Source: Clostridia bacterium | GTDB taxonomy: Bacteria; Bacillota; Clostridia; Christensenellales; Aristaeellaceae | Direction: 5' to 3' | DNA length: 48,220 nt | Assembly (NCBI GenBank): GCA_017410445.1 | Contig: JAFQQU010000010.1 | Span: 1-48,220 of the forward strand | Part shown: piece after piece, positions 15,688 through 46,168 of the stretch | Numbering within the stretch: the first letter of the stretch is position 1 | How the letters are laid out: each line of letters begins with the position of its first letter | Notes under the pieces: model-generated | Database searches by the model: none | What the model was told of the DNA's origin: nothing | The model's input: the letters and a program-made list of their open reading frames with translations, nothing else | Made by a program: the position numbers and the translations under genes

Positions 15688-16047
15688 ATGGACGGGCATA
15701 AAACAGCAAGGTACAGAAAAATCTCCGGATATCATGGATTCAGATATCAGTTCTTCTGCGACCTGTCCGGCGCGCTGATGTGTACGACTGATTTTCAGAA
15801 GGAAGACGACCCTCTGCAGGCATGGGCTACCAAGGGCAGAAAGCTGTTCAGCCGATGTCAGAAGTGCGGCAGATGGGTTTCCGATCCGATGTACAATGCC
15901 GAGACGCTGGAATGCGTTCGGTGCTCCCCGTGGGAGGAACAGCCGGCGTTCTGCCCGCAGTGCGGCGAATCGGTACTGGAGGACAGAGCGTTCTGCCACC
16001 GCTGTCATGCGCGGCTCAAATACCGGGACAAGGAGGAATGCGGATGA
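15688..16047 (+). CDS. Small double zinc-ribbon protein (119 aa)
   Basis: Four CxxC pairs: CQKCG...CVRC and CPQCG...CHRC. An AGGAGG RBS lies upstream. The stop overlaps the next start (ATGA). Confidence 0.6.
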   Translation: MDGHKTARYRKISGYHGFRYQFFCDLSGALMCTTDFQKEDDPLQAWATKGRKLFSRCQKCGRWVSDPMYNAETLECVRCSPWEEQPAFCPQCGESVLEDRAFCHRCHARLKYRDKEECG

Positions 16048-16325
16048 AGGCCCGGACGGAATTCAGCATCAACAGCCCCGAGTATTACGGCTTCGGAATC
16101 GGGATCATGAAGCAGATCAAGGTCTGCCCGCACTGCGGCGCATCCGAGCCGTCCGAACGGTATATCTGCGGGGAGTGCGGAGCAAGACTTCCGGCGCAGA
16201 CGCTGTTTCAGCAGTATCAGCGGATGCACAGGCAGTGTCCGGTGTGCGACACGGTGCTGGCCGCGGGCATGAAGTTCTGCCCGCACTGCGGAATCAAACT
16301 GAAAAATGAGGAAAGCGGGGAATGA
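16044..16325 (+). CDS. Small double zinc-ribbon protein (93 aa)
   Basis: CPHCG...CGECG and CPVCD...CPHCG. An AAGGAGGA RBS precedes ATG 16044. ATGA overlaps occur at both ends. Confidence 0.6.
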   Translation: MKARTEFSINSPEYYGFGIGIMKQIKVCPHCGASEPSERYICGECGARLPAQTLFQQYQRMHRQCPVCDTVLAAGMKFCPHCGIKLKNEESGE

Positions 16326-17068
16326 AGATGAAAAAGAGAATTGGCGTGATTTTGGTTCTTGCATTGATTCTGGCAATGCTGGTTCCTGCCGCCGCTCATG
16401 CCGATCTGGCGTGCGGCAGCAGCGGAGAGGAGGTCCTGTCTCTTCAGACGATGCTCTATGACATGGGGTATCTCTCCGAGGAGGCGGACGGAAAGTTCGG
16501 CGCAAAGACCGAAGCGGCCGTGAAGGAGTATCAGAAATCGGCCGGACTGGAAGAAACCGGCACGGTGACGGACGAGCTGTCGGAAAAGATCTATCAGGAC
16601 TGGATCGAGTATTGGGACTGGGTTCAGGAGCAGCTGCGGCTGGACGCCGAACTGGCGGGGACCGAGAAGCATTACGCTCCGTTCTGCTATTCGTGGGAAA
16701 CCGAGGACGGCCAGACGGTCTTTGAATACTGCGAACGGCACGCGCTTCTGTGGGAGGCGACCTGCGGCATCCTCATGGGCGGCGACGCCGAATCCGCGGA
16801 GTATTCGTATCTCGAATGGCAGGCGGAGGTCATCAGCCTGTATAACGAATGGATAGCGCTGGTCAGCGAACCGGTTCAGGCGCAGCTGGAGGCCAGCAAG
16901 GCGATCGTGCTTCAGCTGTTGGACGCGCAGAGAACCGCCATGTTCGATTCCTATGACGCAGTCGGCTCGGACATCGACCCCACCGACGTCTACTACGGCG
17001 CGGAGAGCTGGATGAGAGCGCACTGCGCGTGGCTTTGCCAGATGATGAGCACGCTGAAGGCCGAATGA
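16322..17068 (+). CDS. Secreted protein with N-terminal peptidoglycan-binding (PG_binding_1) domain and Cys-containing helical C-domain
   Basis: Signal peptide MKMKKRIGVILVLALILAMLVPAAAHA. PG_binding_1 signature GEEVLSLQTMLYDMGYLSEEADGKFGAKTEAAVKEYQKSAGLEETGTV. Confidence 0.7.
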   Translation: MKMKKRIGVILVLALILAMLVPAAAHADLACGSSGEEVLSLQTMLYDMGYLSEEADGKFGAKTEAAVKEYQKSAGLEETGTVTDELSEKIYQDWIEYWDWVQEQLRLDAELAGTEKHYAPFCYSWETEDGQTVFEYCERHALLWEATCGILMGGDAESAEYSYLEWQAEVISLYNEWIALVSEPVQAQLEASKAIVLQLLDAQRTAMFDSYDAVGSDIDPTDVYYGAESWMRAHCAWLCQMMSTLKAE

Positions 17069-17547
17069 TGAGAGAAAAAATATTGGCTGGACTTGTATTG
17101 CTGGCTGTCCTGCTGACGGCTTCCGCCTGTTCAAAGCCGATCAGGACAGACGCACCCATCAGCAGCTTCTCCTTTTCGCATTCGGGCATGCATACCGGGC
17201 TGATTTATACTCTGAGCGCGGCCCGGACAGAAGTTGGCTGGCAGGCGGAGCTTTCCCTGCTGGCCGGCGAACGGGAATATTCGCTGGACATGACCTCGGA
17301 GGAGGTTGAAGCGCTGGCCTCGCTTGTTCAGAATCATGAATTGAGCCGCTGGAACGGATTTGACAGGGTTAACCGTCATGCGCTGGACGGCACCGGTTTT
17401 GACCTGAGAATCGGCTATGAGGACGGTCAGGAAGTCCGCGCGTCAGGCAGCAACGCATTCCCGGAGGGATATGCTGCGGCGCATGAGGCGATTCTGAAGT
17501 TTTTCGGAGAACTGATGGAGAAAAGCGGAATTGACAATCCGCTTTAA
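17065..17547 (+). CDS. Lipoprotein of unknown function (160 aa)
   Basis: Lipobox LLTASAC after a hydrophobic signal (MMREKILAGLVLLAVLLTASAC). ATGA overlap with the upstream gene. Confidence 0.6.
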   Translation: MMREKILAGLVLLAVLLTASACSKPIRTDAPISSFSFSHSGMHTGLIYTLSAARTEVGWQAELSLLAGEREYSLDMTSEEVEALASLVQNHELSRWNGFDRVNRHALDGTGFDLRIGYEDGQEVRASGSNAFPEGYAAAHEAILKFFGELMEKSGIDNPL

Positions 17548-17565
17548 TGGAGAGGAGTTATTTTG

Positions 17566-20500
17566 ATGAAGAAGATTCTGTGCATGACGCTGATGCTGCT
17601 CATGCTGCTGTCCTGCCTGAGCGTACGGGCGGAAGCGGCGGTATGGGATTTTGACACCACCGATTTCAGGCTGAACGGCTATCAGGGCGAGGGCGGCGCA
17701 GTCGTCGTTCCGGATACCATCGACGGCTGCACGGTGGACATTTTCGGCATGTATCTGTTCAACGACGCCGACGCCGTCACCTCGCTGACGCTCCCGGCCA
17801 CCCTGAAGCAGGTCGAGGACAGCGCCGTCGCGTTCTGCGACAGCCTGACTGAGCTGATCATTCCCGAGGGCATTCAGGTCATCGGGGACAACTGCTTCGT
17901 CGGAAATCCGGGCCTGACCGAGCTGGTCATCCCGGCGAGCGTCCGCTACATCGGCGCAAGCAGCTTCGGCAGCAACGAAAACCTCAATAAGGTGACCTTC
18001 CTCGGCGAATGCCCGGTCTTTGCGGGCGCGGCGCTCGACTGGATTGCGGACGACGCTGAGATTTACGTGCCCGACGATCAGTACGACGCGTATGCTGCGG
18101 CGCTGACCGAGGCTGAATGCTATTCGACGATTCTGCCCTCCGGCGCGAACGCGGTCGTGTACGAGCTGACGACCGATCCTTCCCTGTTTGAGTTTGACGC
18201 CGAAACCGGAACCATCACCCGGTTCGCCGGCTTCGACGCCTGCGTCGAGGTTCCCGCGGAAATCGGCGGCGCTGCCGTTAAGGCCATCGGCGACGAGGCG
18301 TTCGGCGACAATAACTATGTCTGCATGGTGACTCTGCCCGAGGGCCTCGAGAGCATCGGCGCGTCCGCGTTCGAGTCCTGCGATACGCTGCTGCATGTTG
18401 ACTTTCCCTCCACGCTGAAGCATATCGGCAGCCGCGCGTTCTATGCGGGTTATCACGGCAGAGCGCTGAATCTGCCCGCCGTTGAAACCATCGGCGACGA
18501 GGCGTTTGGCAGGTGCGTGCGCCTGACCGATCCCGTTTATCTGCCCGAAGGATTGAAGCGCATCGGAAACAGCGCGTTTGACGGCTGCGGCTGGCTGGGC
18601 GAGGTCTATCTGCCGGCTTCCGTTGAAACCATCGGCGAGAGAGCCTTTGCCGACAGCGGCATGAACTATCTGGTCTTCAACGGCCTGAAGCTGCCGGAGA
18701 TTGCGGATACCGCCTTTGAAAACTGCTGGTATCTGTCGGATATCGACCTTCACACCAAGACGACCAAGCAGGAAATGCTGGACATGCAGGCCAAGGTTGA
18801 TGCGCTGGGGCTTACCTGCCGCGTATGGCGCATGCAGAATCCGGACGTCGATTATGTAAACGACGGTCTGGACACCTACGAAAACGGCGTGCTGACCGCC
18901 TATACCGGCGAGCAGACTCACCTGCGCCCGTGGGATACCTATGATGACGTCACCGTAACGGCGCTGGGCGACGGCGTGTTTGCGAATAATACGTATATCG
19001 AATACTTTGCCGTACCCTACAATGATGAATTCACCACCATCGGCGCGGAGGCCTTTGCGAATAGTTCCCTGATGCAGATTGACCTGTTCGACTCCGTCAC
19101 CACCATCAACGGCGGTGCGTTCCGTAATTGCGCGAATCTGACCGAGCTGACTCTGCCCGAATCGGTTGAATTCGTGGGCGTGGAAGCGCTGTACGGCTGC
19201 ACCGGGCTTCAGAAGCTGACCGTTCTGTGCGATCCCACCGTGCTGCCTGAGGATCTGTTTGACGTATGGCCGGAAGGTCTGGAAATCTATGCCGGTGAAA
19301 ACGCCACCGATGAACAGCTGATGTACCTTACCTCCATTGCGGGCCGTCCCTTCTATCAGCCCGTCACCCGCATCGGCGAGCCGCTGCCCGAGCTGACTGC
19401 TTCTCCCTATGAGGCGCTGCCCGCGGAGGATTTCTGGTATGACACCGAGTTTGCCCGTCTGGACAACTATCAGGGCTACGAGCTCAATCTGGTGCTGCCC
19501 AGCACTGCGGAAGATACGATGCTGACCATGGTCGGCGGCAGCATGATGGGCCGCGCCATGTTCGGCGACAACTACGAGCAGGAGCTGCCCGTTGTCTCCG
19601 TCGTCATCCCGCAGGGCTACACCGAAATTCCGCCCTTCGCCTTCCAGAACTGCGATACGCTGGAAACCGTAATCTGCTACGCGCCTCTCGAGCTGCTGCC
19701 CGACAGCGCATTCTCCGGCTGCACCAGCCTGCGCGAGGTCGTGTTCGTAAACGGCGTTCACAGCATCGGCGAATATGTATTCGACGGCTGCCCGAACCTT
19801 GAGACGGTCTATCTGGGCCAGTATGTTGAGAATGTCGGCGAATTTGCGTTTATGGATCAGTTCGGCGATACGGTATGGTCCATGGAGCAGTGCATCACCG
19901 ACCCGGCGCTCCTGCCCGACATCGACTCGATGCTGGAGGCCGTGAAGCGCGAGCCCATGGCCGAGCCCGAGCCGGAAGCCACGCCCGAGCCCGCGGTCCC
20001 GGTCGGCGAGGAAGGCAAGGATTTCTTCGGCCTGTGGATCGGCACCGAGATGGATATGGGCGGCGAGGTCATGAAGCTGTCCGACTGGGAAATCATCATG
20101 AACGTCCTGCTGCTTGAGGACGGCAGAATGATCGCCATGGATGAAGAGGTCACCGACTGGAGCGCGCTTGACGGATTCGAAGCGCCCGGCTGGCGCGTGG
20201 AGAACGGCGTCGCCATCGGCGATACCTGCACGATGACCATTCTCGAGGACGGACGTCTCCTCATGGATGAGGACGGCATGCAGATTTACTTTGAGCGCAG
20301 CGACGTGCAGATTGACGTTCCGTCCGCGCCCGCACAGCCCGAAACGCCCGTACAGCCCGAGGCTCCCGCTGTTCCTGAAGCGCCTGCCGCGCCTGAGACG
20401 TCCGCCGATGCGTCCGGACGCACGGAAATCAAGTTCGTCTGCGAAAGCGCCGACGTCAGCGGCTTCAATATGGCTGCGTCCATGCTGGGCGGCGAGTATT

Positions 20501-20700
20501 CGATGATCTTCCGCGAGGACGGAAACGCCGTGTTTGTCGTCGTCGGCAACGAGATGCCGGGCGTCACCTGGAAGCAGCTTGACAGCGGCAATTTCCAGAT
20601 TGATTTCTATGGCACGCCCATGGAAATCGTCTGGACGGACAAGGGCTTCGATATGAACTACATGGATTCCATGCTGATGCACTTCGTTCCCGCGAACTGA
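17566..20700 (+). CDS. Secreted BspA-type (LRR_5) leucine-rich-repeat protein with Pro/Glu linkers and two C-terminal lipocalin-like beta modules
   Basis: Signal peptide MKKILCMTLMLLMLLSCLSVRAEA. It carries many ~23-aa units of the form LTxLxIPxxVxxIGxxAFxxCxxL. The linkers are PEPEATPEPAVP and PSAPAQPETPVQPEAPAVPEAPAAPE. A GGAGAGGAG RBS lies 8 nt before ATG 17566. Confidence 0.8.
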   Translation: MKKILCMTLMLLMLLSCLSVRAEAAVWDFDTTDFRLNGYQGEGGAVVVPDTIDGCTVDIFGMYLFNDADAVTSLTLPATLKQVEDSAVAFCDSLTELIIPEGIQVIGDNCFVGNPGLTELVIPASVRYIGASSFGSNENLNKVTFLGECPVFAGAALDWIADDAEIYVPDDQYDAYAAALTEAECYSTILPSGANAVVYELTTDPSLFEFDAETGTITRFAGFDACVEVPAEIGGAAVKAIGDEAFGDNNYVCMVTLPEGLESIGASAFESCDTLLHVDFPSTLKHIGSRAFYAGYHGRALNLPAVETIGDEAFGRCVRLTDPVYLPEGLKRIGNSAFDGCGWLGEVYLPASVETIGERAFADSGMNYLVFNGLKLPEIADTAFENCWYLSDIDLHTKTTKQEMLDMQAKVDALGLTCRVWRMQNPDVDYVNDGLDTYENGVLTAYTGEQTHLRPWDTYDDVTVTALGDGVFANNTYIEYFAVPYNDEFTTIGAEAFANSSLMQIDLFDSVTTINGGAFRNCANLTELTLPESVEFVGVEALYGCTGLQKLTVLCDPTVLPEDLFDVWPEGLEIYAGENATDEQLMYLTSIAGRPFYQPVTRIGEPLPELTASPYEALPAEDFWYDTEFARLDNYQGYELNLVLPSTAEDTMLTMVGGSMMGRAMFGDNYEQELPVVSVVIPQGYTEIPPFAFQNCDTLETVICYAPLELLPDSAFSGCTSLREVVFVNGVHSIGEYVFDGCPNLETVYLGQYVENVGEFAFMDQFGDTVWSMEQCITDPALLPDIDSMLEAVKREPMAEPEPEATPEPAVPVGEEGKDFFGLWIGTEMDMGGEVMKLSDWEIIMNVLLLEDGRMIAMDEEVTDWSALDGFEAPGWRVENGVAIGDTCTMTILEDGRLLMDEDGMQIYFERSDVQIDVPSAPAQPETPVQPEAPAVPEAPAAPETSADASGRTEIKFVCESADVSGFNMAASMLGGEYSMIFREDGNAVFVVVGNEMPGVTWKQLDSGNFQIDFYGTPMEIVWTDKGFDMNYMDSMLMHFVPAN

Positions 20701-20718
20701 TCTTCCGAGGTGAATGAT

Positions 20719-22005
20719 ATGAGTACGATTGCTTATACCTGTCCCTGCTGCGGCGCACCGCTGTCCTTCAGCGGAGCGAGCGGCAAGCTCGAATGCGCCG
20801 CCTGCGGGAACAGCTACGACACCGAAGCCATCGAGGCGATGAATCCGGCCGTGACCGACGAGGGCCCCGCGTTTGATCTGCCGAAGGAGGAATTCAATCA
20901 GGAAGAAGCCGCCGGCATGCATGCGTATCTGTGCGAGGGGTGCGGCGCGGAGCTGATGACCGAGGGCGCCACCACCGCCACCGAATGCCCCTACTGCGGA
21001 AGCCCCGCCATTCTGCCCGACCGGATTGAGGGCGGTGTGAAGCCGGAGAAGGTTATTCCCTTCACCGTGACCAAAGAACAGGCGCAGCAGCAGTTCGAAG
21101 AGTATTTCAAGGGCAAGCGCCTGCTGCCCAACGTGTTCCTCGAGAGCCGCAACCGCATCACCGAGATGCGCAGGCTGTATGTTCCCTACTGGCTGTTCGA
21201 CTGCGAGGCCGACGCCAACATCGTCTACGACGCCGAGAAGGAGCATACCCGCCGCGAGGGCGACTGGGAAATCACCCGGACCGAGCATTATGTCGTCCGC
21301 AGAAAGGGCGGCATGGCCTTTGAGCACATCCCGGTGGACGGAAGCGTGAAGCTGGACAATAAGATCACCGAATCGCTCGAGCCCTACGACCTGAGCGCGG
21401 CGGTTCCCTTCAGCCCGTCCGTCCTTGCCGGCGCGCTGGCCGACCATGCGGACGTGGACGCAGCCGAATGCGAGGGCCGCGCGATGGAGCGCGTTGAAAA
21501 CAGCGTGTCTCAGGCGATGCGCGAAACGGTCGTCGGCTACACCCGCGTGAACGAGCGCAGCACGAACATTCGCACCGAGGGCGGCAAGGTAACGCCGGTG
21601 CTGATGCCGGTCTGGCTGATCACCACCGAAAAGGAAGGAACGACCTACACTTTCGCCATCAACGGACAGACCGGGAAGCTGACCTGCGACGTACCGGCGG
21701 ATAAAAAGAAGTCCCTCATCTGGGGCGGAAGCGTGTTTGCAGGCGCGTTCGGAATCGGCGCGCTGGCGCTGTGGCTGCTTGGGCAGCTGGGCAGCGGAAC
21801 GCTTTTGATCGCGGCCGTGATCGCAGCGATCATCGCGCTGATCGTGGTCGGCAGCCTGACGGCGCAGCTTAAGCAGGCGGTGCATCAGAACGCGGCTGCG
21901 GACTATGTGCGCAAGGGCTCCTTCAAGCTCGACGTAAGCTACGACCGGTTCCTCTATGAAACCACGAAAAAGAGGAAGATCGAAACCGGGAATCAGAACA
22001 AATAA
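20719..22005 (+). CDS. Membrane protein with two N-terminal zinc ribbons, a central globular domain and a C-terminal TM hairpin (YdjG-like?)
   Basis: CPCCG...CAACG and CEGCG...CPYCG. The C-terminal hydrophobic stretches are LIWGGSVFAGAFGIGALALWLL and LLIAAVIAAIIALIVVGSL. A GAGGTG RBS precedes ATG 20719. Confidence 0.6.
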   Translation: MSTIAYTCPCCGAPLSFSGASGKLECAACGNSYDTEAIEAMNPAVTDEGPAFDLPKEEFNQEEAAGMHAYLCEGCGAELMTEGATTATECPYCGSPAILPDRIEGGVKPEKVIPFTVTKEQAQQQFEEYFKGKRLLPNVFLESRNRITEMRRLYVPYWLFDCEADANIVYDAEKEHTRREGDWEITRTEHYVVRRKGGMAFEHIPVDGSVKLDNKITESLEPYDLSAAVPFSPSVLAGALADHADVDAAECEGRAMERVENSVSQAMRETVVGYTRVNERSTNIRTEGGKVTPVLMPVWLITTEKEGTTYTFAINGQTGKLTCDVPADKKKSLIWGGSVFAGAFGIGALALWLLGQLGSGTLLIAAVIAAIIALIVVGSLTAQLKQAVHQNAAADYVRKGSFKLDVSYDRFLYETTKKRKIETGNQNK

Positions 22006-22023
22006 CAAAGGAGGAAGACGAAA

Positions 22024-23430: not shown

Positions 23431-23496
23431 CGGAAAAGGGGCGCTGCGCCCCGGACGTCAAGCCGGAATATTCCAATACACCCCTGAAGATCAGCA

Positions 23497-23544
23497 AAAT
23501 CTCCCGGATATCCCCCTGTTTTTGGAAGGATTTCCGGGAGATTT
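23497..23544 (+). terminator. Candidate terminator of unit A
   Basis: Perfect 12-bp inverted repeat AAATCTCCCGGA (23497-23508) / TCCGGGAGATTT (23533-23544), followed by CTGTAT. The loop is long (24 nt), so the strength is uncertain. Confidence 0.4.
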
Positions 23545-23767
23545 CTGTATGGGATGAAACGCTCTGATTCATGAATGCAGAGGGGTCGGCGATTTCGGGG
23601 TTGAGGCGCGAAACCGTTTGAAATCAGCCTGTGCCGACGGCGATTTGTCCGGATTCTTTCCTATTTACTTTATATGCTTTTTTTCAGGCAGACCTTTCTG
23701 TTTTTCGCAGGCTGGATGGCTTTGCTTTCTGATTTTAAGCATGTATGAAATTTCATGATGGTTCCTC

Positions 23768-23796
23768 TTGATAAATAAAGGCAGAGATATTATAAT
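23768..23796 (+). promoter_or_regulatory. Near-consensus sigmaA promoter of unit B
   Basis: TTGATA (23768-23773), a 17-bp spacer, then TATAAT (23791-23796), set in an AT-rich 527-bp spacer. Confidence 0.7.
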
Positions 23797-23957
23797 TTAG
23801 GGAAGAGAATTGTTAGTTTTATCTGATAACAGGTTGCAGCGAAAATGGCAGGCGTCCCCGCAGGCACGGGCGACGCCTGAGGTCGATTGTTTTGGAGTGA
23901 AACGCCCCGGATTTCGGGGGGATTCTTTACTAAGTACGCAGGCGAGGGGAAATTGAT

Positions 23958-26939: not shown

Positions 26940-26972
26940 TCGGGAAAGCTTTCTTGAGAAAGGAGGGATGGG

Positions 26973-27791: not shown

Positions 27792-27795
27792 TAAT

Positions 27796-33436: not shown

Positions 33437-33493
33437 TATAAGGAAGGAATCGGAAACCCAATTCGCGCCGTGCGGACGGGAGGAGAGAAACAC

Positions 33494-35746: not shown

Positions 35747-35815
35747 CCGGAAATAATTTCCAACGGGTTTAAACAATGTGATATAATATAGGAACAAAAG
35801 AGAGGAGAGGATATC

Positions 35816-38800: not shown

Positions 38801-40774
38801 GAAGAAGGCGACCGCTCGGTCATGGCGTGGGTCACGCCCAACGGCGATATGTACGACCTGTACATCGGCGCAAACGGCGTCATCATCGCCCCCGAGAGCT
38901 GCTGCGAGCTGTTCGCCAACTACACCGGCGTGACCTCCATCCGCTTTGGCGGCGTAGTCGACACCAGCGGCACGAACGACATGCAGATGATGTTCGCCGA
39001 CTGCAACAATCTGAAGGAGCTGGACCTGAGCGGCGTCAATACGCAGAACGTACAGCTGATGTCGTTTATGTTCTACAATTGTTATTTACTGGAAGCGGTG
39101 GATACCTCTTCCTTTGACACGAGCAATGTCGTGAACATGAAGGCGATGTTCCATGGATGCTCCGCGCTGGACGAGCTGGACGTATCCGGCTTCAATACGA
39201 GCAAAGTGCAGAATATGGTTTCCATGTTCTATGAATGCAGCTCTCTGACCGGGCTGGACGTATCCGGCTTTGACACCTCCAATGTCACCGATATGAATTG
39301 GATGTTCGGCAACTGCGTCAATGTGAAGACGCTGGATGTATCCGGCTTCAGCACGTCGAACGTGACCAATATGCACGCCATGTTCGGCGAATGCAGCTCT
39401 CTGACCGGGCTGGACGTATCCGGCTTTGATACCTCCAATGTCACTGACATGAACTGGATGTTCGGCTCCTGCGTCAATGTGAAGACGCTGGATGTATCCG
39501 GCTTCAGAACGTCGAACGTGACCAATATGAACTCCATGTTCTATGACTGCTCCGAGCTGACCGGGCTGGACGTATCCGGCTTTGACACCTCCAATGTCAC
39601 CGATATGGGCTGGATGTTCGGCTCCTGCGAGAAGCTGACCGGGCTGGATCTGACCTCCTTCAGCACGGCCAATGTCACCGAGATGAACTACATGTTCTAC
39701 TACGGCGAAAAGATGGAAAGCATCCTGGTCAGCGACGGCTTCGTCATCGGCGAGAGCACGAACACCGAGAAGATGTTTGAAGGCTGCGCTGCTCAGGAAC
39801 TGACCTACACCGACGGCTCTTCTCAGGGCGGCGCTGAGGTCAACAAGTCCGGCAGCAGGATCCTGCGCGGCGACAACGTAGCCAATGAAGAGATCACCAA
39901 CGGCACCGCGACGGTTCTGGGCAGCGACGTCCTGCGCACCTCGATCGGCCGCATCCTGTTCTTCGATTACATTCCGAACGGGATCTCCGGCGCATGGGAT
40001 GTTTCCGAATCGGGCGACGGCTCCGTCATCGCGTGGATTCAGGGCAACGGACGGCTGAACGACCTGTGCATCGCGGCCGAGGGCGGCGTAATCGCCGGCA
40101 GGGATTGCTCCAGCCTGTTCCGCGGCTATCAGAATCTGACGGGAATCGGCTTCAACAACAGCTTCGATACCTCCGCGACCGAGGTCATGTACTGCATGTT
40201 CGCAGACTGCACGAAGCTGGAGCAGCTGGATCTCTCCTCGATCCGCACGGATTCGGCGGTTGACATGGGCTGGATGTTCTACAACTGCTACAAGCTCGAA
40301 TCGCTCGACCTGAGCGGCTTCGAGACCTCCGGCCTCACGGCGGTCAAGGCGATGTTCTGCAACTGCTACATGCTGAAGGACCTGAACCTCGACGGCTTCG
40401 ACACTTCTTCCGCCACGGATATGACCTACATGTTCTACAACTGCTTCAGCATGGAAGAGCTGGATCTGTCCGGCTTCCGCACCGGCAGCGTGACGGCGTA
40501 TGACTCGATGTTCGACGAATGCACCAACCTGAAGACCATCATCATGCCCGGCGGCGCCGCAATGGCTGCCAAGAGCTATTCCGAGGGCTCTTACGGCAAC
40601 GAAGTCCGCGCGATTCAGCAGAAGCTGGCGGACGGCGGCTATCTGGCCGGCAGTGTAGACGGCTCCTTCGGCAAGATCACGGCCACTGCGGTCAAGTTCT
40701 TCCAGCTGGACGCCGGCCTGCAGGTAAGCGGCGTTGCCGATCTCGCCACGCAGCTGGCGCTGTTCGGCCGATAA
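35816..40774 (+). CDS. Giant secreted DUF285/BspA-family LRR protein (5 super-modules) with C-terminal PG_binding_1 domain
   Basis: Signal peptide MRKWLGMMMAALLLVVTVFPAAGGMTALA. Five cap modules plus many 26-aa units. C-terminal GNEVRAIQQKLADGGYLAGSVDGSFGKITATAVKFFQLDAGLQVSGVADLATQLAL. Confidence 0.85.
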   Translation: MRKWLGMMMAALLLVVTVFPAAGGMTALAATGSGTLQVDAPMVAADYTVLDSDIPRSEIVSVTFAGTLSGAPANAWDVSESKDGSVLAWTVPNGDKYDLFIAAEGAVRASQYSAGLFQGYTALEKINFNGCFDTSGVRSMDNMFAQCGALTELDLTGFDISRVDFMDDMFYECSALEIICVREDFCPPEGTNLDRMFYGCRASLVYADESEHKDGAGENRVLRSEVLSDEERGYDLTDETQCGKVLGSSYDRTSVTEVYFLNTLEGMPADAWDVSEAGDGSVMAWVTLDDEWRGDAEEGLLALYIAAEGGVIANENSEDLFRNYVFVEKIHFNGAFDTSGANDMSCMFYNCCFLTEVDVSGFNTANVFDMQAMFGNCISLPELDVTGFNTQYVLDMSYMFLRCCALTELDVSSFDTSLALDMRYMFNDCDLLTALDLTSFTTEFVVDMSNMFSECEELQEVLVSEAFVIDEDDDTTDMFKDSPVQKLTYHMGGSELALVNENILRSDIMTKEQRADNTGLVLGSDIPRAQIATVSFLSTLKNMPSDAWDVSEAGNGSVMAWVTPNGELYDLYIAGNGGVAAGADTCCELFGGYTSVTSIRFDGAFDTSRAENMQLMFYNCVQLTELNLRSLDTANVQDMSFMFYSCIGLTELDVSGFNTSNVTTMESMFDKCSSVTELDVTGFDTSKVEDMSFMFYGCSLLTELDVTGFNTSAVLDMKGMFYECSLLTELDVAGFDTSKVKDMSFMFYECIGLTELDVAGFNTSSVTSMESMFDKCSSVKGIDVSGFDTSNVTDMSYMFYMCSAVEQLDVSGFDTADVTDMKAMFYRCSAIEELDVSGFNTANVTDMNSMFYDCAALKGLDLASFDTGKVLDMSWMFASSESLTSLNLISFNTVNVGNMSRMFYFCEQLASIEVGGSFVIGEGVSTEKMFEGCAAQELTYVSTGSNIMRGDMLTEQERADNTGFVLGSDIPRAQIATVSFVGSLSGMNSSAWDVSEEGDRSVMAWVTPNGDMYDLYIGANGVIIAPESCCELFANYTGVTSIRFGGVVDTSGTNDMQMMFADCNNLKELDLSGVNTQNVQLMSFMFYNCYLLEAVDTSSFDTSNVVNMKAMFHGCSALDELDVSGFNTSKVQNMVSMFYECSSLTGLDVSGFDTSNVTDMNWMFGNCVNVKTLDVSGFSTSNVTNMHAMFGECSSLTGLDVSGFDTSNVTDMNWMFGSCVNVKTLDVSGFRTSNVTNMNSMFYDCSELTGLDVSGFDTSNVTDMGWMFGSCEKLTGLDLTSFSTANVTEMNYMFYYGEKMESILVSDGFVIGESTNTEKMFEGCAAQELTYTDGSSQGGAEVNKSGSRILRGDNVANEEITNGTATVLGSDVLRTSIGRILFFDYIPNGISGAWDVSESGDGSVIAWIQGNGRLNDLCIAAEGGVIAGRDCSSLFRGYQNLTGIGFNNSFDTSATEVMYCMFADCTKLEQLDLSSIRTDSAVDMGWMFYNCYKLESLDLSGFETSGLTAVKAMFCNCYMLKDLNLDGFDTSSATDMTYMFYNCFSMEELDLSGFRTGSVTAYDSMFDECTNLKTIIMPGGAAMAAKSYSEGSYGNEVRAIQQKLADGGYLAGSVDGSFGKITATAVKFFQLDAGLQVSGVADLATQLALFGR
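39237..39650 (+). repeat. Tandem 156-bp duplication (two LRR units per copy), about 2.6 copies
   Basis: GCAGCTCTCTGACCGGGCTGGACGTATCCGGCTTTGA starts at 39237 and 39393, and a related third copy starts near 39549. The encoded block is SSLTGLDVSGFDTSNVTDMNWMFG.CVNVKTLDVSGF.TSNVTNM..MF. Confidence 0.85.
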
Positions 40775-40858
40775 GACACAACGGGTTTTCTGCGGCTCCC
40801 GTCGGGGTGCGGGGGCCGCATGGCAAACTATAACAACAATGGAGAGGGAGATTTGAGG

Positions 40859-42124
40859 ATGAAAAGACTGATTGCGGTTCTTCTGACGGCGCTCATGCTG
40901 CTGGCAATGGCGGTTCCGGCCTTCGCGGCGAGCTACGAGGACGCGTATTCCTATGTCGTCCGCATCTATACCCAGGAGTATGAGGACATCTATCTGGCCG
41001 GCACTAATGAGTGTATCGATCAGAACGTTTATGGCTATATCGGCACCGGTTTTGCCGTCGGCACGCCCGGTCAGCCCGTTCAGTATTTTGTAACCAACCG
41101 TCACGTTGTTACGCCCGATGATGATTACGTCATTGGCACCATTACCGTTGATGATCAGGAGATTCCTGTAGAGGCTTACTACAGCACCCAGAGCTACATC
41201 ATTTTCAGCAACAGCTCCGAGAAGGTTCCGGTCAATATCTACGCGGTGAGCGACCGCTGCGATCTGGCTGTCATCTCCATGAACGAGGCGACCGACAAGC
41301 GCGAGCCGGCGCTGATCTATCCGCAGGATATCAAGAAGCTGGGCCACAAGACGGTCTACTCCGTCGGCTTCCCCGGCATCTCCGATACCTATAACGACAT
41401 CAACAGCGCCATCAGCACCCTGAACTCCTATGAAAGCGACCTGACCATTACCGACGGCCTGATCTCCGCTGTCAAGGAAGACGCCGTCACCAAGGCAGGC
41501 GAGACCATCCAGCACATGGCCAAGATCAGCGGCGGCAACTCCGGCGGTCCTCTGGTGGACGCCAAGGGCTATGTCATCGGCGTCAACCGTTCGACTTGGA
41601 AAGAAGACGGCGACTATGCTCTGGCCGTATCCGCAAACGAGCTGGTTCGCTTCCTGGATGACGAGCGCGTTCCCTACATGACCGTTCAGGACTGGCAGCG
41701 CCGCAACATCATCATGATCGCCTGCATCGCGGCCTGCGTGATCGTTCTGGCCGTTGTCGCGGTACTGGTTATCAAGAAGCGCGGCGGCGGCAGCAAGCCG
41801 GTTTCCGGCGGCTCCCGCACGCTGGTCTGCACCGAAGGCGCGCTCGCGGGCAAGAGCTTCAAGATCACCCCCGGCGCCAGATTCTCCATCGGCTACGATG
41901 CTTCCCGCAGCCAGATCGTCTTCCCGAACGGCACGCCCGGCATCAGCGGCAAGCACTGCAGCATCAGCTTCGACGGCAAGACCGTTATGGTCACCGATGA
42001 AGGCTCCCGCTACGGCACCTGGATCGATCAGACCCGCCTGACGCCCGGCACTGCGACGGTCATGCACCGCGGCCAGACCCTGTACTTCGGCTCCAAAAAG
42101 CAGGCCATGAAGCTTGACAACTGA
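40859..42124 (+). CDS. Trypsin-fold (S1) serine protease ectodomain - TM - cytoplasmic FHA domain
   Basis: Signal peptide MKRLIAVLLTALMLLAMAVPAFA. Triad contexts FVTNRHVV, CDLAVISM and GGNSGGPLVD. TM helix IIMIACIAACVIVLAVVAVLVI. FHA FSIGYDASRSQIVFPNGTPGISGKHCSISFDGKTVMVTDEGSRYGTWID. A GGAGAGGGAG RBS precedes ATG 40859. Confidence 0.8.
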   Translation: MKRLIAVLLTALMLLAMAVPAFAASYEDAYSYVVRIYTQEYEDIYLAGTNECIDQNVYGYIGTGFAVGTPGQPVQYFVTNRHVVTPDDDYVIGTITVDDQEIPVEAYYSTQSYIIFSNSSEKVPVNIYAVSDRCDLAVISMNEATDKREPALIYPQDIKKLGHKTVYSVGFPGISDTYNDINSAISTLNSYESDLTITDGLISAVKEDAVTKAGETIQHMAKISGGNSGGPLVDAKGYVIGVNRSTWKEDGDYALAVSANELVRFLDDERVPYMTVQDWQRRNIIMIACIAACVIVLAVVAVLVIKKRGGGSKPVSGGSRTLVCTEGALAGKSFKITPGARFSIGYDASRSQIVFPNGTPGISGKHCSISFDGKTVMVTDEGSRYGTWIDQTRLTPGTATVMHRGQTLYFGSKKQAMKLDN

Positions 42125-42172
42125 TCCCCCTGTTTCCAATACGATACGATGAATTGAAAGGAGACTATCACC

Positions 42173-42724
42173 ATGCCGCGCAACAACGAATACAACAATT
42201 TCGGAACCCAGCCCGACACCCCCTTCAACTACACCGTTTCCCCGTCCACCCCGATCAACAGCGTGTCCGATGACGTGACCCCCGGTGTGTACAGACCCAC
42301 TCAGGTGTCCGGTGAGTCCGGATCGAGAGATACCGAGGTTTACGATCAGATCAGTGTTGACGGCGAGCAGATCCGCCCGGTCGTCGGCTGGCTGGTATGC
42401 ATTCAGGGCCCGTGCAGAGGCAAGGACTTCCGCCTGCACACCGAGCGCAACTACATCGGCCGCGATAACGCGAGCGTGGACATTTCCATTCCCGACACTA
42501 AGATCAGCCGCGACAACCCCGCCATCCAGATCGCGTATGATCCGGTCGGCCGCGGCTTCTATGTAGCCGCCTGCACCGGCGCGAAGCAGAACAGCTACTT
42601 CAACGGCCGTCTGCTGATGAGCGAGCGCGAGATGCAGGTCGGCGACATCATCAAGCTGGGCGAGACCGAGCTGATGTTCGTCCCCTTCTGCGGCGAGAAG
42701 TTCGACTGGGGCGAGAACGCTTAA
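42173..42724 (+). CDS. Cytoplasmic FHA-domain protein with Thr/Ser/Pro-rich N-terminal tail
   Basis: The FHA core reads WLVCIQGPCRGKDFRLHTERNYIGRDNASVDISIPDTKISRDNPAIQIAYD...YFNGRLL...IIKLGETELMF. The first ~65 aa are low-complexity with many T/S residues. Confidence 0.75.
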   Translation: MPRNNEYNNFGTQPDTPFNYTVSPSTPINSVSDDVTPGVYRPTQVSGESGSRDTEVYDQISVDGEQIRPVVGWLVCIQGPCRGKDFRLHTERNYIGRDNASVDISIPDTKISRDNPAIQIAYDPVGRGFYVAACTGAKQNSYFNGRLLMSEREMQVGDIIKLGETELMFVPFCGEKFDWGENA

Positions 42725-42755
42725 TCTTTCAGGAATAAAGAAATGAGGGACGACG

Positions 42756-44534
42756 ATGGAGAAAATGTGCTATCGCTGCCTGCAGGAGACGATCAAGAAA
42801 GGCCGCTGCACCGCATGCGGCGCTCCCGAGGTCAGCCGATCGGAAAACGATAGCGAACTGCTGCCGCTGGGCACTTTGCTGGACGACGGCAGCATCATCG
42901 TCGGAGACTGTCTGGGCCGCGGCGGCTTCGGATCGACCTACATCGCGCGCGATCTGAAGAACAAGACGCTCATCGCGTTGAAGGAGTTCGCTCCGCGCCA
43001 TATGATGCTTGAACGGCAGGGTCTGGATATCCGGATCATGCCGGACAAGCAGCAGGTGTACGAAAAGTCGCTGGCCAGCTTTCGGCGCGAATCAAAACTG
43101 CTTGGAAAATTGAACCATCCCAATATTGTGCGCGTCTATTTTGATATGGACGAGAATAACACTGCGTATTACGGCATGGAACTGCTGCAAGGCAAGGATC
43201 TGAGGCAATGGACCGACGGCCGGCTCCCTCTTCAGCCCCAAGAGGCGTTCGATCTGCTGTATCCGGTCATGGACGCTCTGAATTATCTCCATAAGGAAAA
43301 GAACACGCTGCACAGAGACATCAGCCCGGACAATATCTTCATCCGGACGGGCGATCAGTATCCCGGCGGAATATCGCCCTGTCTGATCGACTTCGGCGCG
43401 GCCTACACCGCCATGAACGACTTCACGCAGAGCGCGCCCGGCGTCAAGAAGAGCGGATTTTCGCCGCTGGAGCAGAACTGGGACCGCTCCCTTCAGGGCA
43501 GCTATACCGACGTATATGCCTTCGGAGCGACCTTCTATTACCTGATCACCGGCCAGATTCCGCCGCCTTCGACCGACCGGAGGCAGGACAACGATATTCT
43601 CAAGGCGCCCAGCAGCTTCAATCCCGGCATTTCGCCGGAGCTGGACCGCGCCGTGCTGCATTCGATGGCGCTCCGGCCGCAGGACCGCGTTCAGAACATG
43701 AAGCAGTTCATCTATGAAGTGGGCGCTGCGCTGAACGCCGAGAAAGGGCCTGCGGTCATGGACGATTCCAAGGTGATCGGCGGAGAGGATGAACCGCCCC
43801 GGAGAAAAGACGGAAAGCGGGAGACTGCGCATCTGCTGGCGTCTGCTGTGGACTGGGCGCTGTTCTATCTGCTTCCGACGCTGCTGCTGTCGGCAGTTTC
43901 GCCGGTGCTGGGGATTGTTTTGGGATTCATCCTGATGACGGGCGTCGGCATCATCTGCTGCAGCCTGCCCGGATGCGCAACGCCGGGACAGCGGCTCATG
44001 AAGATTCGCCTTGTGGGCTTGTATTCGATCGGCAATCTGATCTGCTACAGCCTGCTGCGGGCGCTGGTCCCGCTGGCGCTGGCCGATGAGATTGCAGCCA
44101 TGATTCAGGGAAGCAGACGCTCCCGCATCGAGCAGATGACCCGGATTGCAGCCATCTCGACGCACGGTCTGGCTCAGGATATCCCCCACCCGCCGATCGG
44201 TCATCGGTCTGTCTGGGCGATCGAAAATCAGGCGAGCCTGTACTGCCTGTCGGGCCTTATGAAGGGAAAGAGCATTGTGCTGATCAGGATGCATGTATTC
44301 GGACGGGATTCCGATCAGGCGACGTTTCTGTTCCCCTCCGCAGACCTGTCCATCAGCCACAGACACTGCATGATCTTCTTCCAGGACGGCGGATGGTATA
44401 TCAAGGATCTGGGCTCGCGCAACGGAACGTTTGTCAACGGCAAACGGCTCGGCGAAGGACAGACGTCCGACCGCCTGAACAGCGGCGATCAGATCCGGAT
44501 CGGCGAGGAGATTCTCGTTTTCAAATTATCTTAG
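42756..44534 (+). CDS. Zn-ribbon - Hanks Ser/Thr kinase - RDD-like membrane domain - FHA domain
   Basis: Zn-ribbon CYRC...CTACG. Kinase motifs GRGGFGSTY, IALKEF, HRDISPDNIFI and DFGAAY. RDD-like AVDWALFYLLP...CATPGQRLMKIRLVG. Canonical FHA FGRDSDQATFLFPSADLSISHRHCMIFFQDGGWYIKDLGSRNGTFVNGKRL. Confidence 0.85.
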   Translation: MEKMCYRCLQETIKKGRCTACGAPEVSRSENDSELLPLGTLLDDGSIIVGDCLGRGGFGSTYIARDLKNKTLIALKEFAPRHMMLERQGLDIRIMPDKQQVYEKSLASFRRESKLLGKLNHPNIVRVYFDMDENNTAYYGMELLQGKDLRQWTDGRLPLQPQEAFDLLYPVMDALNYLHKEKNTLHRDISPDNIFIRTGDQYPGGISPCLIDFGAAYTAMNDFTQSAPGVKKSGFSPLEQNWDRSLQGSYTDVYAFGATFYYLITGQIPPPSTDRRQDNDILKAPSSFNPGISPELDRAVLHSMALRPQDRVQNMKQFIYEVGAALNAEKGPAVMDDSKVIGGEDEPPRRKDGKRETAHLLASAVDWALFYLLPTLLLSAVSPVLGIVLGFILMTGVGIICCSLPGCATPGQRLMKIRLVGLYSIGNLICYSLLRALVPLALADEIAAMIQGSRRSRIEQMTRIAAISTHGLAQDIPHPPIGHRSVWAIENQASLYCLSGLMKGKSIVLIRMHVFGRDSDQATFLFPSADLSISHRHCMIFFQDGGWYIKDLGSRNGTFVNGKRLGEGQTSDRLNSGDQIRIGEEILVFKLS

Positions 44535-44546
44535 GAGGATACGCCA

Positions 44547-46109
44547 GTGAAAAAGTTTTTTTCGGTACTGCTTGCGGTTATTCTGTGCTTTGCGCTGTCC
44601 GGCGTCAGCATGGCGGAGCCCGGAGAGCTGCTGAGCATTCAGAGTATTGCCATTAACGATGACCGCACCATTGAGATGCAGTTCTACAGCGCTGCGTCCG
44701 AGACGCTGCAGCCGTCTGATCTGACCCTTACGCTGGACAATGATGAGCTGGCGGTGGACACCGTATTCGGCCATAGCACGGTCGGAATGGGCACCTCCTG
44801 GCTCTTCCTGGTGGATACGTCCACCGTTTCGACCCGCTCCGGCGACGAACCGGTCAAAGCGCTGCTCAACGGCCTGATTGGAGGCATCGGCGAGAAGGAC
44901 AATGCGGCGATTCTGTCCACCGGCGTTGAACTGGACGGCATCGAGCTGGTCGAAAACAAGAAGACCCTTGAAAACATGATCGATTCTCTTCTGAAGTCCG
45001 ATCCGGCCAAGCTGAACGCGACCATCAACACCGCGCTGGACTTCCTGAAGAAGAACGAGGACGTTCTCGCTCGCTCCTGCGTGGTCATCATCTCCAACGG
45101 CGAGAACATCGATGCGGATGAGGCGGAACTGAAGAAGCTGCAGAACGCCGTTGCCAAATCCGGCGCGACCGTACACACCGTTTCCTTCGCCAGAAATTAT
45201 GCCAGCAAGGATGCGCTGAGCTGCTATGCCTCCATTTCCGCGGCCAGCATCGGCGGCCTGAATTTCCAGGCCGAAATCAAGCCCAAGGAGGAAATCGTCG
45301 CCGGCATGGCCGAGCAGATTTTCGCCAATGAACAGCTTTTCCGCACGCTGAAGACCCAGCCTGTTCCGGAAAACGTCGACGGCTCCAAGCTGACCCTGAC
45401 TCTGAATGCGTCGGGCGTTCAGGGCGTATACACCCTCACCGCCGGCGAACAGCTGAACCTGAGAATGAGCCGCCCGCTCCCGAGCGAAAAGCCTACCCAG
45501 AAGCCCACCATTGATCCGACCGCCGATCCGACCGCCGATCCGACCGCCGATCCGACCGCCGATCCGACCGTAGCGCCGACCGACGGTCCTATTCCCGATC
45601 CCGATCCTGATGATTATCTGGTTTATGTGCTGATCGGCGTGGGCGCCATTGCCCTGTGCGCGGTCATCATCATGATCAACGCGGTCCGCAAGGGCAGAAA
45701 GCAGAAAGACGTCGTCGTACCGCCCGCACCGATCGATCCGGTCGGTCCGCCGGATGAACCGGACGGCCCTGTTGAGCCGGAGAAGCCGGAGAAGACCGGC
45801 AAGATCCGCGTCATGCTGACGCTCCTCGATTCGAACCGCGACGCGGTCTATACCGCGGACATGGTAAGCGAGCTGCTGGTCGGACGCGATATGACCAGCG
45901 TCAAGCTCCTCCTGCCGTCGGACGACCTGAAGATTTCCGGCACGCATCTGGTCCTGCGCTACATCCAGGGCACCATGTTCGTGGAGGACCTGAGCCGCAA
46001 CGGCACGAGCGTCAACGGCCAGCGGATTCAGAAGCTGACCAAGCTGCGCCAGCACGACGTCCTGACCATGGGCGTCAGCCGCTTCCGCATCACGTGGGTC
46101 GAAGAATAA
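44547..46109 (+). CDS. vWA-like ectodomain - PT stalk - TM - cytoplasmic FHA domain
   Basis: Signal peptide MKKFFSVLLAVILCFALSGVSMA. vWA-like strand/motif pattern WLFLVDTSTVS...AILSTG...NATINTAL...VVIISNGEN. (PTAD)4 stalk. TM helix YVLIGVGAIALCAVIIMINAV. FHA VGRDMTSVKLLLPSDDLKISGTHLVLRY...VEDLSRNGTSVNGQRI. Confidence 0.75.
   Translation: MKKFFSVLLAVILCFALSGVSMAEPGELLSIQSIAINDDRTIEMQFYSAASETLQPSDLTLTLDNDELAVDTVFGHSTVGMGTSWLFLVDTSTVSTRSGDEPVKALLNGLIGGIGEKDNAAILSTGVELDGIELVENKKTLENMIDSLLKSDPAKLNATINTALDFLKKNEDVLARSCVVIISNGENIDADEAELKKLQNAVAKSGATVHTVSFARNYASKDALSCYASISAASIGGLNFQAEIKPKEEIVAGMAEQIFANEQLFRTLKTQPVPENVDGSKLTLTLNASGVQGVYTLTAGEQLNLRMSRPLPSEKPTQKPTIDPTADPTADPTADPTADPTVAPTDGPIPDPDPDDYLVYVLIGVGAIALCAVIIMINAVRKGRKQKDVVVPPAPIDPVGPPDEPDGPVEPEKPEKTGKIRVMLTLLDSNRDAVYTADMVSELLVGRDMTSVKLLLPSDDLKISGTHLVLRYIQGTMFVEDLSRNGTSVNGQRIQKLTKLRQHDVLTMGVSRFRITWVEE
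45513..45572 (+). repeat. Tandem 12-bp coding repeat GATCCGACCGCC x4 (+1 imperfect)
   Basis: Units start at 45513, 45525, 45537, 45549 and 45561, encoding DPTADPTADPTADPTADPTV. Confidence 0.9.
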
Positions 46110-46128
46110 GCCGCATAAGCAAAAGATA

Positions 46129-46168
46129 CCGTGCGGGAAGCCGATGGATGGCTTCCCGCACGGTTTTT
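46129..46168 (+). terminator. Strong Rho-independent terminator closing unit B
   Basis: CCGTGCGGGAAGCC-gatggat-GGCTTCCCGCACGG forms a 14-bp perfect stem, followed by TTTTT. Confidence 0.9.

Follow-up and report, generated by a model that had tools for sequence, protein, structure and literature searches.

What might a run of Hanks kinases, PP2C phosphatases and FHA proteins do when it is encoded beside giant leucine-rich repeat (LRR) surface proteins? The locus that raises this question lies in a 48,220-nt stretch of DNA from a Clostridia bacterium, referred to here as the window, whose numbering is used for all coordinates; the set under study occupies 15688-46109, with all genes on the + strand. 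An original prediction from the sequence presented this set as an island of twenty genes wired into one trans-envelope machine that matches no described system. Seventeen genes, g01 to g17, were found in place of the twenty, and the intergenic gaps are too small for three more. Seven of them, g08-g10 and g14-g17, are a real conserved syntenic module encoding a receptor kinase, two PP2C phosphatases and four FHA proteins, which are an ecto-protease-FHA protein, a small FHA protein, a kinase-FHA protein and a protein that joins a von Willebrand factor A (vWA) domain to FHA.

A seven-gene core in related loci

Twelve related loci were compared, seven of type A (L004, L005 and L087-L091) and five of type B (L006-L009 and L092). 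The type A loci come from metagenome-assembled genomes (MAGs) of Clostridia and from metagenome contigs, and type B includes Cohnella yongneupensis and Ca. Oscillibacter avistercoris. Gene contexts were viewed for ten protease-FHA homologues and three genome matches. A protease-FHA alignment scan of genome contigs, run with the generic pattern GNSGGPL, gave three relevant loci among the 80 listed (Cohnella, Ca. Oscillibacter avistercoris and a Lachnospiraceae MAG). Scanning metagenome contigs with an alignment of the vWA ectodomain gave 138 pattern matches and no confirmed relative, and a full-length search for g17 homologues was swamped by its PT-repeat linker and yielded only two true relatives.

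The kinase, PP2C, FHA, protease and vWA genes had been proposed as one set, and in all seven other type A loci g09, g10 and g14-g17 keep a constant order: PP2C, transmembrane (TM) PP2C, protease-FHA, small FHA, kinase-FHA and vWA-FHA, at 26-55% identity. Orthologues of g09 were found in six of these seven, the L087 contig ending short of that upstream position. The gene for the ecto-kinase lies either before the PP2C genes or after the vWA-FHA gene. Type B loci carry one or more kinases, a small FHA protein, two PP2Cs and a protease-FHA protein, without the kinase-FHA and vWA-FHA genes. The Cohnella kinase of this type has a PASTA and FG-GAP ectodomain and adjoins an SLH wall protein, and the L092 kinase gives a faint LRR_5 match.

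Directly downstream of the type A module in L091, at 9053-11623 of that locus, an FHA-FHA-ABC transporter is encoded, whose architecture is that of M. tuberculosis Rv1747. L005 encodes two extra secreted Trypsin_2 proteins without FHA (7959-9884 of that locus) between its PP2C and protease-FHA genes, in the position that the DUF285 genes occupy in the window.

In the window the co-directional genes are separated by gaps of -7 to +84 bp, in keeping with the claimed spacing of 0-85 bp or overlaps, and an AGGAGG-type ribosome-binding site precedes most gene starts. The promoter-bearing 527-bp spacer of the original prediction was recovered at 23431-23957. It carries a sigma-70-like site at 23768..23796 on the + strand (TTGATA-17-TATAAT, 11/12 matches), the best in a scan of 15000-24200; the sigma-70-like scan also gave a promoter-like site for unit 1 at 15551-15579 (+). 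The closing terminator was likewise found, as a hairpin at 46128..46168 (+) with a 16-bp stem, 11 GC pairs and a TTTT tail. Because the spacer has its own promoter-like site and the run is closed by this terminator, the region reads as two predicted transcription units, g01-g07 (unit 1, 15688-23430) and g08-g17 (unit 2, 23958-46109). No internal terminator was found around the embedded DUF285 genes, which are spaced by 25-84 bp, and Rfam and tRNA scans of the window, including the 527-bp spacer, gave no riboswitch, other RNA or tRNA.

Domains and folds of the core proteins

Most of the domains read from the translations were recovered by Pfam: Pkinase in g08 and g16, with VAIK/IALK, HRD and DFG present; PP2C in g09 and g10, with the DGxGG and DNxT metal-binding motifs; FHA in each of g14-g17; and one Trypsin_2 domain in g14. 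Five LRR proteins were also found as claimed (g05 of the LRR_5 type; g08 and g11-g13 of the DUF285 type), together with four PG_binding_1 domains, Band_7_1 of the SPFH type in g07, and six proteins with Zn-ribbons or CxxC pairs. Pfam was silent on the vWA-like domain of g17, which was instead confirmed by a PDB profile search, by matches of its family to PF00092 and by an AlphaFold2 model. Topology was taken from a hydrophobicity scan for signal peptides and TM helices. It agrees with the proposed placing of protease and vWA outside and FHA inside, in that each ectodomain has a predicted signal peptide before it and a TM helix followed by FHA after it.

The receptor kinase g08 (23958..26939, +; Pkinase 2e-24, DUF285 1.5e-45, TIGR02167 PARCEL 5e-59) runs from an N-terminal CxxC...CxxC Zn-ribbon through the Hanks kinase, a TM helix at residues 346-364 and a PT-rich stalk to an ectodomain, the C-terminal end of which is one PARCEL/DUF285 LRR cassette. 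PARCEL is the NCBIfam name for the DUF285 repeats, a family described in PMC2996958. The stalk is encoded by 12-nt periodic repeats (25066-25377) of the PT(E/A)K type, in about 18 copies. The second kinase, g16 (42756..44534, +; Pkinase 4e-27, FHA 2e-19), consists of a Zn-ribbon, a Hanks kinase, an RDD-like membrane region with two to three hydrophobic segments, and FHA; a weak RDD match was obtained in the L087 orthologue. K76, HRD, DFG and the FHA residues GR/S..H/NG are invariant in eight g16 orthologues. Both kinases are closest to PknB/Stk1-type NCBIfam models, below their cutoffs, and no PASTA domain was found in g08, g16 or the type A kinases examined.

The phosphatase g09 (26973..27791, +; PP2C_2 3e-13) is soluble and carries DGMGG and QDNST motifs. 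Its neighbour g10 (27796..28971, +; PP2C_2 8e-14) is membrane-anchored, with about 87 N-terminal residues, a TM helix at 90-108 and the catalytic domain on the KRQK-positive side. It matches a Stp1/IreP-type NCBIfam model at 5e-32, below cutoff, and its orthologues are 44-53% identical.

The protease-FHA protein g14 (40820..42124, +; Trypsin_2 1e-20, FHA 3e-11; likely start 40859) comprises a signal peptide, an outside S1 protease, a TM helix and a cytoplasmic FHA domain. Its catalytic residues H82, D135 and S228 are invariant in 27 homologues, and its structural model (pLDDT 91) matches the protease domains of DegS, HtrA1, DegQ and MarP. On this model, the ectodomain is a DegS/HtrA-like S1 fold with a His-Asp-Ser triad. 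It shares the membrane-tethered fold and the intact triad with DegS/HtrA and MarP. The difference from DegS/HtrA is that PDZ is missing, that the regulatory module is a cytoplasmic FHA domain across the membrane, and that the anchor is C-terminal to the protease; no PDZ match was found in g14, and the NCBIfam HtrA, DegP and DegS models fall far below their cutoffs. The family holds more than 330 clusters at 90% identity, and all 120 of 120 among those listed are Trypsin_2+FHA. The few homologues with a source label come from Clostridia, Clostridiales or Eubacteriales MAGs.

The small soluble protein g15 (42173..42724, +; Yop-YscD_cpl 1e-8, FHA 7e-5) has a divergent FHA domain. In the alignment its N-terminal tail is variable with a recurrent Y-x-P-T motif, and the family C-terminus carries a strongly conserved FVPLCGEKFxW outside the FHA fold, a motif for which we know of no function. 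A weak OdhI-like NCBIfam match was also obtained. All four FHA domains of the module match the YscD cytoplasmic-domain model as well. By sequence, the FHA phosphothreonine residues (Gly-Arg, Ser-x-x-His, Asn-Gly) appear complete in g16 and g17, with Gly-Tyr in g14 and no His in g15.

The last core gene, g17 (44547..46109, +), encodes a signal peptide, an outside beta-sandwich and vWA domain, a PT linker, a TM helix and a cytoplasmic FHA domain. An eight-sequence g17 profile run against the PDB matched BatA, BatB, the integrin alpha-M I-domain and ArnB (E 1e-4 to 2e-2). A HMMER search with the g17 ectodomain gave 213 representative clusters (50% identity), nearly all of 470-580 aa; among 71 relatives sampled, FHA was present in 68, PF00092 in 46 and an LRR_5 fusion in two. 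Representatives of this family were used to build the AlphaFold2 model (pLDDT 86), in which the ectodomain matches ArnB, ITIH1, BatB, TEM8 and vWF A-domains and the C-terminal FHA has FhaA and GarA as its best structural matches. A Rossmann-like alpha/beta vWA fold is confirmed for the ectodomain by the profile matches and this model, and the phosphothreonine-binding residues of FHA are conserved across the vWA-FHA family.

The g17 stalk is encoded by 12-nt periodic repeats of the DPTA type (45513-45589). P0001, a relative 98% identical to g17, has a stalk with two DPTA units (eight residues) fewer, and strains therefore differ in its length. A distant relative with the architecture vWA-TM-FHA, P0005 (L001 9966-11489, 25% identity), adjoins STAS/anti-sigma-type genes and a bacteriocin-type ABC exporter.

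Surface proteins and a possible coupling

Three genes embedded in unit 2, g11 (28997..33436, +), g12 (33470..35746, +) and g13 (35816..40774, +), encode secreted wall proteins that are variable cargo of the module. They carry five, two and five cassettes, respectively, of a head followed by PARCEL/DUF285 LRRs, each protein with a PG_binding_1 domain (C-terminal in g11), and their signal peptides are of the ordinary Sec type. With g08 included, the total is 13 cassettes of a head and 26-aa repeats, and the g08 ectodomain is 40-50% identical to g11-g13. The same paralogy between kinase ectodomain and neighbouring surface proteins, at 40-50% identity, was seen in L005 and L089.

The claimed wiring to LRR proteins stands as far as location and relatedness go: LRR-type surface proteins adjoin the core in seven of the eight type A loci (counting the window), and kinase ectodomains are paralogous to them; the coupling itself is something that we infer. 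DUF285+PG_binding neighbours are found in the window, L004, L005 and L087, LRR_5 giants in L089 and L090, Sel1 in L004, and DUF6273 in L088 and L089, and surface proteins of 1360 to >3700 aa adjoin the core in nearly every type A locus. The L005 kinase ectodomain has a DUF285-type head and ends in PG_binding_1, and the 3776-aa kinase of L089 contains at least nine LRR_5 and at least ten Sel1 units. In L091 the PP2C genes are directly preceded by an incomplete DUF285 ORF, which probably represents the 3' end of a gene joining a kinase to DUF285.

These neighbours could have no joint function with the module, which would then be a self-contained kinase/PP2C/FHA operon that landed by chance in a region accumulating surface-protein genes. 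As this explanation would expect, the surface genes vary from locus to locus in kind and in position, L088 carries DUF6273 proteins but no LRR, and unit 1 is clearly unrelated. We nevertheless regard it as very unlikely, given that LRR, Sel1 or PG_binding domains are fused to module kinases and twice to vWA-FHA proteins, that kinase and neighbour ectodomains are 40-50% identical in three loci, and that the DUF285 genes of the window are embedded at 25-84 bp with no internal terminator found.

That unit 2 encodes a phosphothreonine signalling complex which is embedded in the membrane and tied to recognition at the surface is, in our estimate, evenly balanced between true and false, and its mechanism is a proposal. 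In its favour are the constant gene order, the conserved catalytic and phosphothreonine-binding residues, the predicted topology, the structural matches of protease and vWA domain, the relatedness of kinase ectodomains to nearby surface proteins, and the T6SS PpkA/Fha pathway, T7SS variants and Esr as precedents for envelope machines whose assembly is driven by phosphothreonine and FHA. The g08 LRR (PARCEL/DUF285) ectodomain would detect a surface ligand or the state of the wall proteins g11-g13, and g08 and g16 would auto- or cross-phosphorylate threonines in their activation loops and juxtamembrane linkers. The FHA domains of g14, g16 and g17 and the soluble g15 would then dock on these phosphothreonines and draw the proteins into one membrane complex, the clustering of which could switch on extracellular proteolysis by g14 from inside. 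Such inside-out switching is proposed because the PDZ regulator is replaced in g14 by a TM helix and FHA. Proteases of the HtrA type are controlled by oligomerisation and allostery. The g14 protease might act on the ligand, on the LRR proteins of the wall or on some other envelope protein, with the g17 vWA domain holding a partner; g15 could serve as a soluble adaptor or output in the manner of GarA/OdhI, and resetting the system would fall to the two PP2Cs, soluble g09 and membrane-anchored g10. Candidate purposes are adhesion control, host or partner sensing, or defence.

A more specific form of this proposal places LRR receptor Ser/Thr kinases of gut Clostridia at the head of a contact-sensing system, in which a foreign surface (host, phage, epibiont or competitor) would trigger the FHA complex and switch on the DegS-like ecto-protease and the vWA adhesin. 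We consider this version doubtful, and hold as just as tentative its second part, that recognition would be by polymorphic LRR, Sel1 or PARCEL arrays, some kinase ectodomains being thousands of residues long. If true, contact sensing would be a functional counterpart, built from different parts, of plant LRR receptor-like kinase (LRR-RLK)/KAPP immunity and actinobacterial Esr.

Several points weigh against a coupled complex. A single anchor gene, protease-FHA, led to all of the comparison loci, so that its own conservation is by construction. The g17 metal ion-dependent adhesion site (MIDAS) has lost three of its five residues (S94->V, T154->A and D184->N) and retains D90 and S92, the majority of the vWA-FHA family keeping the canonical D-x-S-x-S ... 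T ... D. Because of this loss, the g17 of the window may work differently or be decaying. The g14 FHA domain has Tyr at the phosphate-binding Arg position, where 19 of 27 relatives have Arg. Three hydrophobic segments are predicted in g16, and with an odd number of helices its FHA domain would lie outside. The vWA-FHA relative P0005, found independently, is encoded without the other module genes. The L088 kinase lacks an ectodomain, and in L004 the kinase ectodomain shows no relationship to the neighbouring proteins. Only in the window are DUF285 genes placed within the operon, between the PP2C and protease genes; elsewhere the surface genes lie at its ends, as would also be seen if unrelated cargo had entered a hot spot. 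Apart from domain identity and synteny, the whole proposal is what we infer from sequence. The original idea of one trans-envelope machine therefore survives in reduced form: the set is two units, of which unit 1 is unrelated, and the core is syntenic, with a joint machine suggested by that synteny and by domain logic.

Known systems, neighbouring genes and meaning for the Clostridia

Full-text literature (subscription-only papers lying outside its coverage), NCBIfam and PADLOC gave no matching system, consistent with the claim that the set is undescribed. No NCBIfam model passed its cutoff for the core proteins. PADLOC 2.0 returned only generic kinase (PD-T4-6, mad6) and S1-protease matches, and none for the PP2Cs, g15 or g17; a known anti-phage defence system was rejected, as the models of its non-kinase components were unmatched.

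The actinobacterial operon fhaA-fhaB-pstP-rodA-pbpA-pknA-pknB encodes two FHA proteins, a membrane PP2C and two Hanks kinases, and its FHA domains bind phosphorylated juxtamembrane or substrate threonines. The module likewise groups FHA proteins in one operon with a membrane-anchored PP2C and a pair of Hanks kinases. In contrast to that operon, however, the module is without RodA/PBP, its type A form is without PASTA, the fusion partners of its FHA domains are an ecto-protease, an ecto-vWA domain and a kinase, and the phylum differs. As had been claimed, no FTSW_RODA_SPOVE or transpeptidase match was found in the window or the type A loci.

The likeness to this operon bears on an unlikely alternative, that the module is a PknB/PrkC-Stp-like wall-homeostasis system in which FHA proteins would regulate wall synthesis or remodelling, the ecto-protease would trim wall proteins and the LRR proteins would be mere neighbour cargo. 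The shared set of two FHA proteins, a membrane PP2C and two kinases fits this alternative, as do the PASTA (+ FG-GAP) kinase beside an SLH wall protein in Cohnella, the PG_binding_1 end of the L005 kinase, and the resemblance, below cutoffs, of g10 to Stp1/IreP and of the kinases to PknB/Stk1-type models. MarP, among the structural matches of g14, is a membrane-anchored S1 protease acting on a wall hydrolase. Yet RodA, FtsW, PBP, MurJ and other wall-synthesis genes are absent from the eight type A loci, the type A kinases examined have no PASTA, and a patchy module with highly variable giant proteins is unlike a core growth regulator. Wall homeostasis would also leave unexplained why the type of kinase ectodomain co-varies with the neighbouring surface proteins.

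The TerY-P triad (Aravind group) joins a cytoplasmic TerY-type vWA protein, a PP2C and a Ser/Thr kinase, often beside ter genes. Both encode a vWA protein next to a PP2C and a Hanks kinase, but the TerY vWA protein has no signal peptide, TM helix or FHA domain, and the triad has no protease or surface proteins. The triad was rejected as an identity for the module, the vWA domain of g17 following a signal peptide and preceding a TM helix and FHA; no match to a Ter (tellurite-resistance) family was found in the 17 products and flanking genes. A Deinococcus operon, DRA0331-0334, adds an FHA protein to a TerY-P-like triad, according to a preprint (bioRxiv 10.64898/2026.01.23.701218).

In type VI secretion (T6SS), the kinase PpkA carries an outside vWA domain (PMC1262709), and according to PMC3953482 and PMC11217815, phosphothreonine binding in the PpkA-PppA-Fha1 pathway of Pseudomonas and Agrobacterium assembles or activates the envelope machine on surface cues. 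The module shares with this pathway the combination of a membrane Hanks kinase, PP2C, FHA and an extracytoplasmic vWA domain. It differs in that its vWA domain sits on its own FHA-tailed protein and not on the kinase, that it has four FHA proteins, an ecto-protease and LRR receptor kinases, and that its hosts are monoderm Clostridia. No T6SS core genes (TssB/C, Hcp, VgrG, TssM/L) were found in the window, and TagH/VI_FHA matched below cutoff, through the FHA domain.

In the Esr system of Actinomycetales, which senses an epibiont attached to the cell surface, a surface sensor of variable sequence and a vWA protein occur with a kinase, a phosphatase and an FHA output protein that is phosphorylated on Thr; a MoxR AAA+ ATPase and the beta-propeller filament EsrA are also required, and the pathway is linked to Esx secretion (PMC13622651). 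The module has no MoxR, EsrA-type filament or Esx, whereas no protease-FHA protein is described for Esr. A vWA-MoxR/Esr system, as defined in PMC13622651 and PMC7159879, was rejected, with no AAA/MoxR match in the window or the type A loci viewed.

Variants c, d and e of the type VII secretion system (T7SS) have a TsxD kinase with an outside domain, a TsxF PPM phosphatase and FHA, to which T7SSc adds the cytoplasmic vWA protein TscE (PMC11217815). A membrane kinase, a PPM/PP2C phosphatase, FHA proteins, vWA (in T7SSc) and Gram-positive hosts are shared with the module. A T7SS variant was nevertheless rejected, with no FtsK/SpoIIIE-type ATPase (EssC/TsxC) or WXG100 protein in the 17 genes or their flanks.

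The Bacillota/Actinomycetota T7SS variants, which pair Ser/Thr kinase, PPM, FHA and vWA with secretion (PMC11217815), lend themselves to a further account, in which the module controls the maturation, anchoring or export of giant surface proteins. FHA proteins would form a scaffold like YscD, T6SS Fha or EssC, gated by the kinases and phosphatases; this we judge quite improbable, and we give as little weight to its second half, that the ecto-protease would process LRR, Sel1 or DUF6273 proteins after export and the vWA protein would chaperone or dock them. Such a role would suit the YscD matches of all four FHA domains and the giant surface proteins beside nearly every type A core. It is hard to reconcile with the lack of a secretion ATPase (FtsK/EssC), WXG100, sortase or dedicated translocon in the window or related loci and with the ordinary Sec-type signal peptides of g11-g13, and in several loci the LRR module lies within the kinase itself, which fits sensing better than cargo.

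Plant LRR receptor kinases and KAPP (KI-FHA + PP2C) offer an analogy only: an LRR ectodomain, a single-pass Ser/Thr kinase, a membrane PP2C and FHA recognition are shared, and the KAPP FHA was a weak PDB match in the g17 profile search. Taken as whole systems the two are convergent, the bacterial LRRs are of other types (PARCEL and BspA), and FHA and PP2C are on separate proteins in the module. The combination of ecto-vWA, kinase, PP2C and FHA is thus not unprecedented, with T6SS PpkA, the T7SSc-e variants and Esr as precedents, and the core is best filed as a variation on known kinase/PP2C/FHA signalling, not as a categorically new system.

Unit 1 (g01-g07, 15688..23430, +) adjoins the conserved module but lies outside it. 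By Pfam, its seven genes encode two Zn-ribbon proteins, a PG_binding_1 protein, a lipoprotein, the BspA-type LRR_5 protein g05 (17563-20700, +) and a Zn-ribbon/TM and SPFH pair. No counterparts of g01-g07 were found in the 12 related loci, and unit 1 is therefore not part of the conserved system. A relationship of the g08 mid-ectodomain to the C-terminal region of g05, which would tie the two units together, was rejected (BLASTP E = 0.87). In the pair, g06 (20710-22005, +) has two Zn-ribbons and C-terminal TM helices, and g07 (22024-23430, +), a soluble SPFH protein (Band_7_1), has a stretch rich in Q and A and four Zn-ribbons at its C-terminus, an 87-nt tandem duplication lying within the Zn-ribbon region at 23076-23235. 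The same layout is seen in YdjG/YdjI (SamG/SamI) of B. subtilis, a likeness drawn from their description (PMC8581546). In the B. subtilis pspA-ydjGHI (samGHI) membrane-stress set, membrane protein genes precede the gene of a soluble SPFH protein whose sequence includes a low-complexity stretch and, C-terminally, a zinc finger, and the set is linked to pspA (PMC8581546); no pspA gene was found in the window. Divergent from unit 1, at 14342-15448 on the minus strand, a 7TM (HisKA_7TM-type) membrane domain is fused to a LuxR/GerE HTH, and this protein may be a local regulator.

The label of island did not hold. The window has no integrase, transposase, tRNA or flanking repeats, and a mobile island was rejected; the label rests only on a GC step near 16 kb (0.50 -> 0.60). 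Over about 14000-18000, GC content rises from about 0.50 in the left 15 kb to 0.58-0.62 through the module and the right flank. The left 15 kb hold genes for Cas9, an AraC regulator, an ABC sugar transporter, a beta-lactamase-fold protein and lyxose isomerase. The window starts inside cas9 (3-1061; Cas9 PAM-interacting domain, open to the edge), followed at 1356-1720 by a CRISPR array of six 36-nt repeats (GTTTGAGAGTTGTGTTGTTTTAGAGGGTAATCAATC) with 30-nt spacers, and a minus-strand 162-aa ORF at 1178-1666 is spurious because it overlaps this array. Long minus-strand ORFs (up to 1756 aa) at 17443-22008, 23973-27527, 32015-37285, 39086-42439 and 44526-46259 sit in codon register with the + strand genes and were rejected as coding; Pfam matches none of these shadow ORFs, one of which covers g11, g12 and g13 because all three share one frame. 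At the right end, a 252-nt tandem repeat of 2.5 copies, 92% identical, runs off the window (47598-48220), and at its position the same-species contig L002 encodes an 817-aa Big_2 surface protein.

To our knowledge, almost all that is known of Hanks-kinase/PP2C/FHA signalling in Firmicutes comes from PrkC/Stk1, a PASTA kinase, with its phosphatase, and the module would add a second, widespread class. Its distinctive features are two kinases with two phosphatases, receptor kinase ectodomains swapped with neighbouring giant surface proteins, and cytoplasmic FHA domains fused across the membrane to extracellular enzyme or adhesion domains, the last of these features implying that an HtrA-like protease is under inside-out control. 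Judged from these sequences, the module probably links surface contact to signalling inside the cell. If this coupling is true, it would give a handle on how gut anaerobes, abundant yet little studied, regulate BspA/PARCEL-type adhesins and on what these adhesins sense, and would provide a tractable test case for phosphothreonine-dependent membrane complex assembly in monoderm bacteria.

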